The notes under the pieces were generated by a model. It was not told the origin of the DNA. It made no database searches and was given only the letters and a program-made list of their open reading frames with translations. This document shows, one piece after another, positions 14,585 to 19,477 of a DNA stretch of 20,000 nucleotides; position 1 is the stretch's first letter; each line of letters opens with the position of its first letter. Both the position numbers and the translations under genes were made by a program. The stretch comes from an uncultured virus (IMG/VR IMGVR_UViG_3300034019_001883) (Duplodnaviria; Heunggongvirae; Uroviricota; Caudoviricetes): the IMG/VR virus record IMGVR_UViG_3300034019_001883, positions 56,050 through 76,049 of that record, one strand, 5' to 3'.

Positions 14585-14634
14585 AATTATTTGTGACATC
14601 CGATAGACTAAGGCTATGCACTCTCGTTAGAGAG

Positions 14635-15498
14635 ATGGACATTGACGTAAAGCGCTTATCAGATGAACTTCTCGAAATCCGGATGCGCTACACCGGGGAG
14701 GAGACCCAGCACTTTTTGTTAGCCTCAGACATTCACCTGGATAACCCAAAGTGCGATCGCAAGCTATTCTTCTCTCACCTCGATAAAATGAAGGCTCTCG
14801 GTGGTAGAGCCTTATTTTTTGGCGACGTGCTATGCCTGATGCAGGGCAAACGCGACAAACGCGGCAGCAAGTCCAGCATCCGCCCCGAGCACCAGGGGGC
14901 CAATTATTTTGACTTGGTATTCAAAGAGTCTGCCGATATTCTTGGCCCCTACGGCAAAGAAATTTTGATGATGGGCAATGGCAACCACGAAACTGCCATT
15001 ATCAACAATCAAGAGGTGGACCCACTCGCTAACGTAGTGCAGCAGATGCGCGATCGCCATAAGGCGGTTACTGAGCACATGGGTTACCAGGGCTGGGTGC
15101 GCTTTGTGTTTTACAAGCAACGGGGCAATGGCGTTGAAAAGGTACGACGCTGCACCCTGTTTTTTCACCATGGCGCCTGGGGCGGCATTGTCACCAAAGG
15201 CACCATGGGCGGCGGTCGCTATGCCAGCATCGCCCCGGATGCCGATATTATCGTCAATGGCCATAACCATGAACGCTCTATTGTTAGTCACCCCTGCTAT
15301 CGTTTGGCGGAGACCGGCAAGGTAAAGGTAACCCCGCGATACCATGTTCAGACCGGCACCTACAAAGAAGAATTTGAGGGCGGCAACGGCTGGGCGGTGG
15401 AGCGCATTGTCATGCCGAAAAGCCTCGGCGGCGTCTGGCTGAAGCTTACCCCCGATCGCCAGTCAGGCGTTACCGTATCGCTAGAGCCCGCTGTCTGA
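14635..15498 (+). CDS. Calcineurin-like metallophosphoesterase
   Basis: All five motifs present: SDIH, GD, GNHE, HHG, GHNH. Likely start ATG 14635. Confidence 0.88.
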   Translation: MDIDVKRLSDELLEIRMRYTGEETQHFLLASDIHLDNPKCDRKLFFSHLDKMKALGGRALFFGDVLCLMQGKRDKRGSKSSIRPEHQGANYFDLVFKESADILGPYGKEILMMGNGNHETAIINNQEVDPLANVVQQMRDRHKAVTEHMGYQGWVRFVFYKQRGNGVEKVRRCTLFFHHGAWGGIVTKGTMGGGRYASIAPDADIIVNGHNHERSIVSHPCYRLAETGKVKVTPRYHVQTGTYKEEFEGGNGWAVERIVMPKSLGGVWLKLTPDRQSGVTVSLEPAV

Positions 15499-16821
15499 CG
15501 GTTGCTTATTGGCAATAAGCTTTAACCGCACCTCCACCACTTCATTCCCCTGCAAGATCACTCGCTCCACCAATTCCGCGTAAATTTCCCGGCGCCTTAC
15601 CACCGGCAATAAGTTTAGGTCCGCCTGCGCGATCGCCATTGTCTTTTCCCGTAGCTCTTGCTGGTTAGCACTGGCATAGCTTGCCATGCCCGCCAAGGCT
15701 TGTAGCTCCGCCTCGATTTCAGCTATCTCTTCGGCGATCGCCGCCCGGTGGGCCAAAGGTCGAAGTGCTTCTAGTTCTCGCTCCAGCGCGATCGCCTGCG
15801 GGTTCACCGTCGAGGGCTGTAGCATATCCGCCGCGATCGCCTCGGCGGCCTCTACCAACGCCTCCTGAATGGCTGCTTCAATGGCATCCTGGCGGCAAGA
15901 ACGGGTGTAGGAGCATTCCCGGTCATGGTAGTCAGCTTTGGCCGCACAGGCAAAATAGCGATGGCCCCGGCGGATAAGCGCACGGCACCGGCAGCCACAA
16001 ATACAGGACACAATAGGCGGCACCGCATGGATGCGTCCTTGATTGTTGCCGCGCAACTGACGGTTGAGGCTAATCAGGTATTCAATACGCTTGTACTCTT
16101 CTTCGGTGATCAGTGCTGGGTGGGTGTTGTAGCGCCACTCATCAGTTTTGGCATAGTGCAAATGCCCCCGTAGGGCAGCACTACGCAGCCACCACCGCCA
16201 ACCCGCTCGAGACTTATAAAACCCGTAGCGCCCCTCCATGTGGGCTGACAATGCCATCAGGTTGCCGTGCTCTAGGTAAAATTCTATCGCCGCCCTTGCC
16301 TTTGCCCACTCTGGCCCCGGCTCATAGCGGCTACCGTCTAGCGATCGCTGGTAGCCAAAGGGAGGCGGGCCACACATGGGGCGCCCCTGTCGCCTCATCT
16401 GGGCATAGGCGCGCTGGATGCGCTCGCCTAGTTCTACCGAATAGTAGTGGGCCATCAGCGACTTAACGCCAGTGGTGAGCAACCCTGAGGCGGTTTGTAG
16501 CGTGATCTCCTGGCCAGTGGTTAGCTCCTTCACCTGCACGCCCGCCGCCTCCAACTGAGCCAAGCTTTCCATCGAATAAACCGTATCCCGTGCCCACCGG
16601 GTCCACTCAATGACCCATACTGTAACTAAATGACGTTGACCACGGAGGTCCAATGCCCGTTCCACCATGCGCAAAAATTCAGGGCGATCGCGCCTGCGCC
16701 CTGACAAATTTTCAGCAAACAGTTCATCAAACTCAAGCTGTTGCTGAAATTGCTGCATCTGTAATTCCAGGCTTTGCTCTTCAGTCGATACCCGCCCGTA
16801 GCAAAGTTGATAGTGTGCCAT
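15481..16821 (-). CDS. Large serine recombinase (integrase; XisF-like)
   Basis: Catalytic YGRVSTEEQ, SGRRRDRPEF, PPFGY recombinase domain, Zn ribbon (CICGC...YFAC...C) and coiled coil. ATG 16821 preceded by GAGGGG. Confidence 0.93.
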   Translation of the reverse strand: MAHYQLCYGRVSTEEQSLELQMQQFQQQLEFDELFAENLSGRRRDRPEFLRMVERALDLRGQRHLVTVWVIEWTRWARDTVYSMESLAQLEAAGVQVKELTTGQEITLQTASGLLTTGVKSLMAHYYSVELGERIQRAYAQMRRQGRPMCGPPPFGYQRSLDGSRYEPGPEWAKARAAIEFYLEHGNLMALSAHMEGRYGFYKSRAGWRWWLRSAALRGHLHYAKTDEWRYNTHPALITEEEYKRIEYLISLNRQLRGNNQGRIHAVPPIVSCICGCRCRALIRRGHRYFACAAKADYHDRECSYTRSCRQDAIEAAIQEALVEAAEAIAADMLQPSTVNPQAIALERELEALRPLAHRAAIAEEIAEIEAELQALAGMASYASANQQELREKTMAIAQADLNLLPVVRRREIYAELVERVILQGNEVVEVRLKLIANKQPSDSGL

Positions 16822-16870
16822 GGTCAATCCCCTCTCCAATTTCAGCGTACTACGCCGCATCTAAAAGGAG

Positions 16871-16910
16871 GTGCCATGGTGAGAATTGCTCAGAGTTCTA
16901 GCTATGGCAC
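16871..16910. other. Candidate attP site
   Basis: Imperfect inverted repeat GTGCCATGGTGAGAATT-gctcag-AGTTCTAGCTATGGCAC (13/17 arm matches), 50 bp upstream of the integrase start. Central dinucleotide TC at 16890-16891. Confidence 0.65.
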
Positions 16911-16967
16911 GACTAGCCTAAATTGGGCTGGTATCGTAAGATATACACAAATAGAACCGGAGGCATT

Positions 16968-17192
16968 ATGGCTTGGCGTCCCCAGGCTTGCTTAGATAAC
17001 TTAAAACCCAAGGCGCCACGCTATGACGAGCATAAAAAGCGCGGGCAACTTATCTTAACCCCCACCGCATGGGATATTCTCAACACCCTAGCGAAAGAGG
17101 CAGGCTTATCCCGCTCTGAATTTGTGGAGCAACTGGCCAGGGGTGAATTGAACCTCAGTGGCGGTATCGTTACTCGAAAAACTCCCGCATAA
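16968..17192 (+). CDS. CopG/ribbon-helix-helix DNA-binding protein
   Basis: GGAGG RBS before ATG 16968. 'KKRGQLILTPTAWDILNTLAKEAGLSRSEFVEQLARG' is a typical cyanobacterial RHH. Confidence 0.8.
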   Translation: MAWRPQACLDNLKPKAPRYDEHKKRGQLILTPTAWDILNTLAKEAGLSRSEFVEQLARGELNLSGGIVTRKTPA

Positions 17193-19041
17193 TTTCGCTC
17201 TGGGTCTTGCTGTAGTCAGACTTAAGCTCTATCGGCCCTGTGGGCTCTTCTGTGCCCTCTTCTACCACCTCTGGCTCTGGCAGGCTATAGAATTCACCAG
17301 AGGCGGCTGATAGCTTACACAGTGCCCCCACAACCGACGCTACTGCATCGGCAATATCTTTATGGCTATCCACGTCACTACCTAAGGCGGTACGCGGGGC
17401 ATCAATCCGTCCGGTCGATAGCCTCACCAATTTCCGCAATTCCCCGAACAGGATCGGGTCGATGCGGTACACCAACTGTCTGGCATAAATAAGCGCCTTT
17501 AGTTCATCGTAATAACCTGGGTTACGGTCCACCGAAAAATTCTGGCTGCTAACGCCATAGTGGTATAGCAGCTGTCGAGCCGTAGCGCTATTGAATTGGT
17601 CGAACGTCACCCGCGCGATCGCAAACCCTAGCCGCTTGCTCAGCAGCAATACAAATTCCACCGGTGTCTGCAAGTCTATCTCCGCCTGGCGGATGTCCAC
17701 AGTTGTGGAATCGCCGCCCTCCCAGTTAATGCGCTGCAACTGGCCGCGTCCAGTAAAGTGGGCCGCCTTCCAGCGAAAGGATAGGTCCAGTACCGGTATC
17801 AGTCGGTCCGCGCGATCGCCCACCGGCTCCAGGTGGGCCATGGCAAACCCGGCACTATCACCCGATAGCCCCAGGTCGATATGAATGTAATACTCGCGTT
17901 CGGGCTTGCCCTTGAACCAGTTGGCTAACATCGGAAAGCCATAGCTATCCAGTACCACGTCACCAAATAGGTCGCGCTCTAGGATGGGGTCAGGGCTGCG
18001 ATCGCTACCCGTCACGCCATAGCGCTTCAGTAGGTCGGATGTCCCCCCACTGGCATGACGCACAATGAGTTCAGGCGATCTAAAGTAGGCTTCAGTCGCC
18101 GCTCTGGGTTGGGCTGCTAACTTAGCCGCTGATCCCTCTGGGTCCCTAATAAATTCAGTTTCAAAGTCTTTGTATTCCAGGTGGGGCACGACTTCCCAGG
18201 TGGGGCGACGCACCACAAATAATTCAGGGAATCGTCCCTCCTGGTGGGCTTCAATCAACTGCTCCTGCGGGTCCGATACGCTACGCGGAAAGCTGGTCAG
18301 AAAACCTTTCCATGCCTTTCTGAAGCGGGTGCGGCAGGAGGTGACAAAAGTATTGAACAATGCCTCCGCCGTGGCCCCCTGCGCCTCAGACTCTAGCCCT
18401 GCAAACTCGCTAATTACAAAGGCCAGTAGGTTGAACCCCTCCGCGCTACTGCTAATCAGCGGTAGGTTGTGGATTCGGATATTGTGGGGTAGCTCAATAT
18501 AGTCCGCCGCGTCGGTCGCTTTCTTGATATAGCGGTCAACGTCTGCGATCGCAAACTCCGAACGCGCCAGGTGACTTTTTAGCCAGGTGCAGGTCCGCAA
18601 TCGGTTCTTTAGCTTGGTGAAGGTTACCCGCCGCGTCTGGCGCAACGTAGGTGAGGCTAAGGCAATATCAATGGGTTCCTGGGGGGCAAGCCCTAGAAAA
18701 TCCTGGGGGTCTCTCAGGCACAACAGCACATGGGCGAACCATACAAGGCAGACGGAGGCTAAGGTATCCTTGCCCGCACCCTTGCCGTAGCACAAAATGC
18801 CACAATTGTAAAGGGTTGGCGGATTTTGAGTAAACAATGCCTTAGCATCCGCCGCTGTGGTGCCTAGGAACTGGCTTAGGTCCTGTTGCTGCACATCCCA
18901 GGGGGTAACGTCCAGGTAGGCGCGGCAGAACTCACCCAAGGGTAAGGGGTCCTCTAGCCAGGGGGAGTCACCCGCCGTTGGTTCCTGGCCCTGGCTCATT
19001 AGCTCCAATAGCGCGATCGCGTTACCCTGCTTTCTCTGCAT
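17170..19041 (-). CDS. terL: Terminase large subunit
   Basis: Walker A GKGAGKD, Walker B region 'GFNLLAFVISE', coupling motif TSFP, and RNase H-fold nuclease motifs IHIDLG, FDQFNS and HKDIADA. Confidence 0.9.
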   Translation of the reverse strand: MQRKQGNAIALLELMSQGQEPTAGDSPWLEDPLPLGEFCRAYLDVTPWDVQQQDLSQFLGTTAADAKALFTQNPPTLYNCGILCYGKGAGKDTLASVCLVWFAHVLLCLRDPQDFLGLAPQEPIDIALASPTLRQTRRVTFTKLKNRLRTCTWLKSHLARSEFAIADVDRYIKKATDAADYIELPHNIRIHNLPLISSSAEGFNLLAFVISEFAGLESEAQGATAEALFNTFVTSCRTRFRKAWKGFLTSFPRSVSDPQEQLIEAHQEGRFPELFVVRRPTWEVVPHLEYKDFETEFIRDPEGSAAKLAAQPRAATEAYFRSPELIVRHASGGTSDLLKRYGVTGSDRSPDPILERDLFGDVVLDSYGFPMLANWFKGKPEREYYIHIDLGLSGDSAGFAMAHLEPVGDRADRLIPVLDLSFRWKAAHFTGRGQLQRINWEGGDSTTVDIRQAEIDLQTPVEFVLLLSKRLGFAIARVTFDQFNSATARQLLYHYGVSSQNFSVDRNPGYYDELKALIYARQLVYRIDPILFGELRKLVRLSTGRIDAPRTALGSDVDSHKDIADAVASVVGALCKLSAASGEFYSLPEPEVVEEGTEEPTGPIELKSDYSKTQSEIMREFFE

Positions 19042-19477
19042 GGCGTTGTAGGATGCGGTGGAAGGTTTGCGCGTCGAAGTCTGGCCGGTTCAATAGCGCG
19101 ATCGTCGCCTCTTCCAGCGTGGTCGGGTTCATCTCCCGGTATAGCTGCAGGTACTTAGCCAGCGCTGTGGCGACGCCCTCCAGCGACTTCGCTTCTGTCT
19201 CATTGACAGCACCCGCCAAAGTCTTGATGGTGCGGGTCATATAGTCGTTAACGTCGAGCCCGTCGATGGTAACCTTGGCCCCCGCCGCGATCGCTGTTGT
19301 AACCACTTGGTTAACGCTACGGGTAGGCGTTCGGCTCAAATTATTCTCTTTGACTACCCGCTTAACGGTGCCAGTGGAGACGCCACAAATCTGGGCGATG
19401 TCCTCAATGGTATTGCTGGACTCGGCATAAAGCTTTTTGATGCGGGCTTGGATCAACTCTGGAGTCTTGGCAGGCAT
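19022..19477 (-). CDS. terS: Terminase small subunit (N-terminal HTH)
   Basis: HTH 'TIEDIAQICGVSTGTVKRVVK' plus helical C-terminus. Immediately upstream of and overlapping terL. Confidence 0.75.
   Translation of the reverse strand: MPAKTPELIQARIKKLYAESSNTIEDIAQICGVSTGTVKRVVKENNLSRTPTRSVNQVVTTAIAAGAKVTIDGLDVNDYMTRTIKTLAGAVNETEAKSLEGVATALAKYLQLYREMNPTTLEEATIALLNRPDFDAQTFHRILQRHAEKAG

Follow-up and report, generated by a model that had tools for sequence, protein, structure and literature searches.

A 40-bp imperfect inverted repeat at positions 16871-16910 of the window, the 20,000-nucleotide stretch of DNA analysed here, is a real attP of a known kind and very probably that of the XisF-like large serine integrase encoded beside it, with a core TC dinucleotide at 16890-16891. 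The ATG at 16876, in which the initial annotation had seen the replacement start of an interrupted host gene, most likely owes its presence to the motif that the integrase binds, and the neighbouring SD-like run would be incidental. The window forms the final 20 kb of a linear virus record of 76,049 bp (G000; CheckV completeness 72%, GC 55.6%), in which 157 GCGATCGC sites were counted, a sequence that we take to be HIP1, a trait of cyanobacteria. Among the 24 listed runs with at least half of the region's sampled words, 23 were lake-water metagenomes. An Rfam scan of five sources returned no match, and a literature search found nothing on the phage family of G000.

Table 1. Features of the predicted integration module, in window positions.
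Feature	Position	Strand	Remark
SD-like run AAAAGGAGG	16863..16871	+	left arm begins at its last G
Probable attP left arm, integrase-proximal	16871..16889	+	motif 47-54 nt from the integrase start in 18/18 loci tabulated
Putative zinc-ribbon-domain motif in left arm	16871-16879	+	holds the ATG at 16876; concept from the available part of PMC3783163
Predicted crossover dinucleotide TC	16890..16891	+	symmetry centre; 19 nt from motif start in the attP of three relatives
Probable attP right arm	16892..16910	+	mirrored motif at 16902-16910
39-codon ORF, MVRIAQ...	16876..16995	+	0 Pfam families
TTG, other frame	16886..16888	+	in-silico recombination; speculative stand-in rsmD start if rsmD were the target
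74-aa ribbon-helix-helix (RHH)-like protein, own GGAGG	16968..17192	+	right of attP; weak RHH matches below cut-off
Large serine integrase, XisF-like, 446 aa	15481..16821	-	start MAHYQL at 16821
Purine run GGAGAGGGG, probable RBS of integrase	16829..16837	-	function assumed from sequence

The arms of the repeat are complementary at 13 of 19 positions, and the symmetry centre, GCT/CAG, falls on TC. Symmetry alone is at chance level, with 30 of 75,999 centres in G000 scoring at least 13/20, and with the outer motif on both arms 16871-16910 is a unique site in G000; it shows the marks of an attP, namely imperfect inverted symmetry about a central dinucleotide and an outer motif in each arm. The neighbouring gene encodes a serine catalytic domain, a recombinase domain and a four-Cys zinc ribbon, as in large serine integrases. 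Its product matched Pfam Resolvase above the cut-off (E 7e-19) and Recombinase weakly, below the cut-off, and its best PDB match was the C-terminal domain of the A118/LI integrase (E 1.5e-17), while R10, S12 and the four Cys were invariant across 26 aligned integrase sequences. Against NCBIfam recomb_XisF (NF041201) it reached 162.8 bits (E 1.3e-47) at a cut-off of 375, so it is XisF-like rather than a member of that equivalog. An in-frame ATG at 16860, upstream of the integrase start, is unused by homologues. The 74-aa RHH-like gene on the other side of the repeat is also kept in loci L022 and L030, and its product is possibly a regulator or directionality factor.

What makes the attP assignment real is not the symmetry of the repeat, but the conserved position of its motif and the junctions recovered in relatives. 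Seventeen of 18 loci had the outer motif at 51-54 nt from the start of the integrase gene; in the remaining one the distance was 47 nt. The integrase profile, run against 173 genomes from a single cyanobacterial order, matched eight genomes at E 1e-60 and four at E 1e-90, and we kept those at 1e-90, the remaining four having no such site. Both junctions were recovered for three integrated relatives (G008, G015 and G090): in G008, comM is split after PCGYYG by an element of ~61 kb; in G015, radC is split by a related element; and in G090, a 15-kb element is intergenic and integrated via the homologous site. At the fourth genome locus, L010 (36%), neither a junction nor an intact site was assignable. 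A metagenome scan with the integrase alignment yielded 16 loci, 11 of them close enough to read, and a contig, L042, held a second comM junction. In all three reconstructed attP sites of relatives, crossover lay 19 nt from the motif start, which corresponds to TC in the window, and we infer the same crossover position for the window phage. The conserved motif position and the crossovers in these relatives lend support to the candidate attP and to the crossover at GCT/CAG that the initial annotation had proposed. Class-wide, the integrase family appeared in 1 of 401 sampled genomes; among the genomes searched, the phage family was found in one cyanobacterial order only.

The targets of these relatives are in part familiar ones, as 12.4% of site-specific LSRs target comM and RadC is within the target families given, according to the available part of PMC10083194; RsmD and GT4 terms were absent from eight supplementary files of that study. 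Core dinucleotides among the relatives included TC, GA, AA, TT, GG, TG, CC, AC and AG, and with nine cores these phages evidently retarget often, so that their behaviour is not binding for the window clade. The intergenic site of the G090 element is conserved in G081, G088 and G101. The element is flanked by what we presume to be an ssb-like gene and a psbQ-like gene, and its far end was located by DNA search, a guessed pattern having given nothing.

Within the predicted attP, the ATG at 16876 forms part of the putative integrase-binding motif GTGCCATG. The attP arms described in the accessible text of PMC3783163 carry a 9-bp zinc-ribbon-domain motif at their outer ends, and GTGCCAT(A/G)G may by analogy play that role here. 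In the 68% clade, all eight loci had the same ATG after AGGGG, with a stop at codon 3 and the ATG repeated on the other arm, and two of three loci in the 46% clade had a stop at codon 4 after the motif ATG; several of these loci are near-duplicates. At the L042 junction the motif ATG is directed against the interrupted comM, and at the comM 3′ junction of G008 it is out of the comM frame. In the window itself, the opposite arm mirrors 8 of the 12 bases that encode MVRI. Re-heading of a host gene would call for a start and RBS conserved among relatives sharing the site; instead, L009 (89%) reads MVRAA, and L007/L008 (~72%), in which the same TC-core site is inverted, read MVRLP and lack an SD upstream of the arm that holds the ATG. 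GGAGG is kept in nine of nine loci of the 89-100% clade and is absent before the equivalent arm in L007/L008.

The features themselves, namely AAAAGGAGG, the ATG, the reading M-V-R-I-A-Q, the 40-bp repeat and its centre, were all confirmed in the sequence, as was the 39-aa ORF of no recognisable family. Within the 89-100% clade, the ORF at the site is 39 aa long in two of nine loci and 16 aa in seven, so the 39-aa ORF is not a conserved gene, and the full-length conservation that would have spoken for a phage gene of its own was not found. The RBS called strong in the initial annotation is present as an SD-like GGAGG, a run found ahead of 37 of 2,257 ATGs (1.6%) and 6 of 69 long-ORF starts in G000; it is uncommon, yet function does not follow from that. 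The "replacement gene start" was an interpretation that we could not confirm; the ATG is explained by the motif, and a stop precedes the crossover in eight of eight loci of the 68% clade. Nor do the relatives with known junctions favour an attB at a gene start, as they insert mid-gene or between genes.

The element in G090 and G000 have 7 of 81 G000 ORFs in common (six early genes and the integrase), and on this ground G090 and the drafts G081, G088, G101 and G108, chosen for resemblance to G090 or G000, were taken as the likeliest host clade. Protein clusters of this putative clade have members named Nodosilinea sp. In a host search by DNA similarity, eight of 13 matches were inspected and none was a CRISPR spacer. 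The G090 element (G090:C29:3790-19025; L210) is an integrated 15-kb segment that carries the integrase together with six early genes of this phage family; none of its structural genes, if any, matches G000, and it may be a satellite or reduced prophage. The comM element of G008 (G008:C1:4675500-4737500; L252-L255), at 61 kb, has only the integrase in common with G000, and in G015 (C175; L058, L060) two radC 3′ fragments lie ~7 kb apart on one contig, one of them being the junction used.

Re-heading, as first proposed, is unproven and partly contradicted, and its best surviving form, which we consider unlikely, would take sqdX as the target. The attB would lie in codons 4-5 of sqdX, the phage arm supplying GGAGG, the ATG and V-R-I-A, to give a full-length enzyme one residue longer; the second gene of the sqdB-sqdX pair would be cut off from sqdB and placed under phage-side expression signals. 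The name sqdX rests on synteny, for a GT4 starting MRIALF directly after UDP-sulfoquinovose synthase. In line with this target, the sqdX-type start pattern occurs in 118 of 173 family genomes, the gene upstream is UDP-sulfoquinovose synthase, and 9 nt (GAATTGCTC) are common to the left arm and many family genomes. In three of the four lake-clade genomes (G081, G088 and G101), sqdX presents ATTGC-TC in frame with the phage ATG; the native sqdX start in this clade has a pyrimidine-rich leader, and G090, of the same clade, bears the element with 7 of 81 G000 ORFs. One-sided identity by the core, as seen here, is also present in the radC pair. The match may nevertheless be due to chance, MRIA being a common start of the fold.

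The proteins themselves argue against an sqdX start rebuilt by the phage. None of 142 full-length SqdX-like proteins starts MV, and positions 3-4 are I/V and A in all 141 that start at M, which the readings MVRAA in L009 and MVRLP in L007/L008 do not fit; the set was drawn from 15 listed members of each cluster and from the 120 best of 6,290 matches. At sqdX the core is TT in G090 and TC in just 14 of 35 loci read, and the right arm is without the outer motif (2-3/19); the site scores 10/30 on the shifted model, where known pairs reach 11-14. No junction was found in viral contigs or the 173 genomes, and no promoter-like site was found at 16300-17300, where a weak scan that only partly covers cyanobacterial promoters gave no sigma-70-like site. 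Even if sqdX were the target, its product works in thylakoid sulfolipid synthesis and is no envelope glycosyltransferase. The sqdB and sqdX genes are neighbours and probably an operon, according to the available part of PMC7401256; in the literature, sqdX, prophage and integrase were not found together, and neither rsmD nor sqdX was found as a prophage target.

A different gene start, that of the 16S rRNA methyltransferase gene rsmD, is a still more doubtful target. Here crossover would fall in codon 2, the ATG at 16876 would be out of frame and yield 33 aa, and the start codon would be replaced by the TTG at 16886, which has GGTGA ahead of it, the expected host-side junction being AGGGTTTATGG. 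The identity of RsmD is secure (TIGR00095 over the cut-off), and with each arm taken 5 bp off, following the shorter attB arm spacing in the accessible text of PMC3783163, the rsmD start of G088 and G090 matched at 16/19 for core plus right arm and 20/30 overall. It was the sole match at three mismatches in G090 and one of two in G088, and in none of 30 other matched loci did the crossover fall within the second codon of an evident gene; in one it lay three codons past an ATG. Against these points, matches this good are present in 112 of 173 genomes, a peptidase site in mid-gene reaches the same 20/30, and the shift model gives real attB sites only 11, 13 and 14 of 30 and so has no shown power. 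L007/L008 are without a start codon at this place and L009 has CTG; RsmD was absent from the viral contigs searched, and the literature search offered no precedent for it as a prophage target. The 5-bp-shift attB model was for the same scores (11-14/30 for real pairs, matches in 112/173 genomes) rejected as a discriminator between targets. Resemblances of radC ('IAH') and comM ('LEFLR') were considered by eye and set aside.

The target named in the initial annotation, a GT4 starting MRIAQ(V/I) whose capture would bring an envelope glycosyltransferase under phage control, fares worse and is very improbable. Such genes do exist in cyanobacteria, as had been claimed: the MRIAQ start pattern was present in 37 of the 173 family genomes; of 20 loci fetched, 7 were GT4-like, and all three scanned were Pfam GT4. 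These loci share at most 12 nt with attP across the core. They were not found in the five lake-clade drafts, however. The protein at 73% in control G061 has no orthologue in G081, G088, G090 or G101 (best 27-34%) and was not found in G108 at E 1e-30, and the pattern occurs in none of the five clade drafts, which are incomplete and belong to a predicted host. These loci scored 11-13/30 on the shifted model, and the readings of L009 and L007/L008 also speak against them. The host would have to supply the Q of MRIAQ, which falls beyond the crossover, so any MRIA-[C] start fits, and as three gene starts could be fitted to the site, such fits are cheap. Finally, the repeat could serve as an operator lying between the divergently oriented integrase and RHH genes, or be left over in a phage that has ceased to integrate, given its place between two divergent genes and the finding of only the uninterrupted site in four of four runs and in all close-clade viral and metagenome contigs. 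This is just as improbable: three genomes have their crossover at the equivalent site, the integrase ORF is uninterrupted and retains its catalytic residues, and contigs lose rare variants.

Searches for junctions of the window phage itself found none in viral contigs, four Logan runs or 173 genomes, a set in which rare lysogens are missed. Left- and right-arm patterns in viral contigs gave eight loci, which were seven known phage contigs and the chance match L011; a further arm-pattern search gave nine loci, all on contigs with the intact site; the predicted rsmD and sqdX junction patterns gave none in viral contigs; and the left arm of the 68% clade retrieved three known contigs only. In Logan contigs of 4 of the 24 listed runs, two of which are possibly the source of the window DNA, the site was bridged in all four with no joint or loose end. 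The left arm searched against the 173 genomes gave 35 matches in 30 genomes, and the 30 loci read were chance matches without integrase. As contigs lose rare variants, these empty searches are no evidence against lysogens.

Taking the above together, we favour ordinary serine-integrase integration through TC with no gene start rebuilt, which we regard as probable, all such gradings in this text being judgement rather than computation. The window DNA would belong to a temperate cyanophage of a Nodosilinea-like lake cyanobacterium, with 16871-16910 as its attP. One dimer of the XisF-like integrase would span the 40-bp repeat, its zinc-ribbon domains presumably contacting the outer GTGCCAT(A/G)G motifs and its recombinase domains the inner bases; the TC core would be cut and the arms joined to a host attB that shares it. 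The ATG would then be a by-product of the outer motif, and integration would most likely lead, as in relatives, into a conserved host gene or an intergenic site, presumably with no re-heading. Against this account may be counted the empty searches for a junction of the window phage, the rarity of GGAGG (1.6%) together with its retention in nine of nine loci, the in-frame fit of sqdX, the frequent change of target among relatives, and the fact that re-heading is documented elsewhere.

The attP sites of these phages are unusually plastic, both in their inversion relative to the integrase and in carrying different cores beside integrases that are 99.8% identical. The latter is the case for L027 and L028, whose attP centres read CCTGC-AA-AGAGG and CACGC-TT-GCAGG; that of L035, grouped with L027, L028 and L029, is GG. 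Differences of this type suggest orientation flips or fast retargeting with the protein unchanged. In L007/L008 (L025/L026), the attP as a whole runs the opposite way to that of the window with respect to the integrase; their integrase is 78-81% identical to the 68% clade and ~73% to the window, the site is nonetheless window-type, and the integrase alignment that includes them looks mosaic.

In the window, the integrase, attP and RHH gene directly adjoin putative terminase genes (15481-19477), a label that we assume from remembered motifs and a weak Pfam match, whereas the attP neighbours in L026-L028 are tail-type genes; as judged from gene order, the integration module changes place within these phage genomes. 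A 301-aa ORF at 14593-15498, whose end overlaps the end of the integrase gene, had no Pfam or NCBIfam match and carries what we take to be metallophosphoesterase-like motifs. Outside the window, G000:9595-10707 and 23633-24751 are ORFs presumably for a sigma-70 factor and the sliding clamp of a DNA polymerase.

Once its attB is known, the integrase with its attP is a possible integration tool for filamentous cyanobacteria. Should sqdX after all be the target, the lysogen's synthesis of SQDG, a phosphorus-free thylakoid lipid, would no longer be coupled to sqdB but be driven from the end of the prophage, and start signals would be written into the recombinase binding site itself. Thylakoid sulfolipid is regarded as a phosphorus-sparing substitute in the available part of PMC7401256.

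Among known systems, re-heading upon integration is the one that the initial annotation had called to mind. The integrases of the dusA-targeting IMEs and of SXT at prfC are tyrosine-type. Re-heading is already documented for these elements, and in the dusA IMEs the replacement comprises ~35 codons and was demonstrated by junction sequence and a lacZ fusion (bioRxiv 10.1101/2021.06.18.448947), whereas the window phage would offer at most four codons, inside the binding arm. XisF-type elements, which interrupt many cyanobacterial genes as far as the accessible text of PMC4874684 describes them, have the XisF-like serine recombinase in common with the window phage, whose relatives also interrupt conserved genes (comM, radC). 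Unlike those elements, the window integrase scores under the equivalog cut-off and is carried by a large phage with structural genes, and no link to heterocyst development was seen. The comM- and radC-targeting LSRs in the available part of PMC10083194 share their targets with window relatives at 39-42% identity; the cores of the relatives with these targets are GG and GT, whereas the window core is TC. In the A118/LI model, taken from the available part of PMC3783163, the outer motif is numbered 16-24, while by our own reading that of the window spans positions 11-19 from the core, and, unlike in the LI model, the motif shifted by 5 bp is weak in all three reconstructed attB sites of the window family. 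The attP of that model is likewise an imperfect inverted repeat of ~40 bp beside the gene of a zinc-ribbon integrase, with a central dinucleotide and an outer 9-bp motif on both arms.
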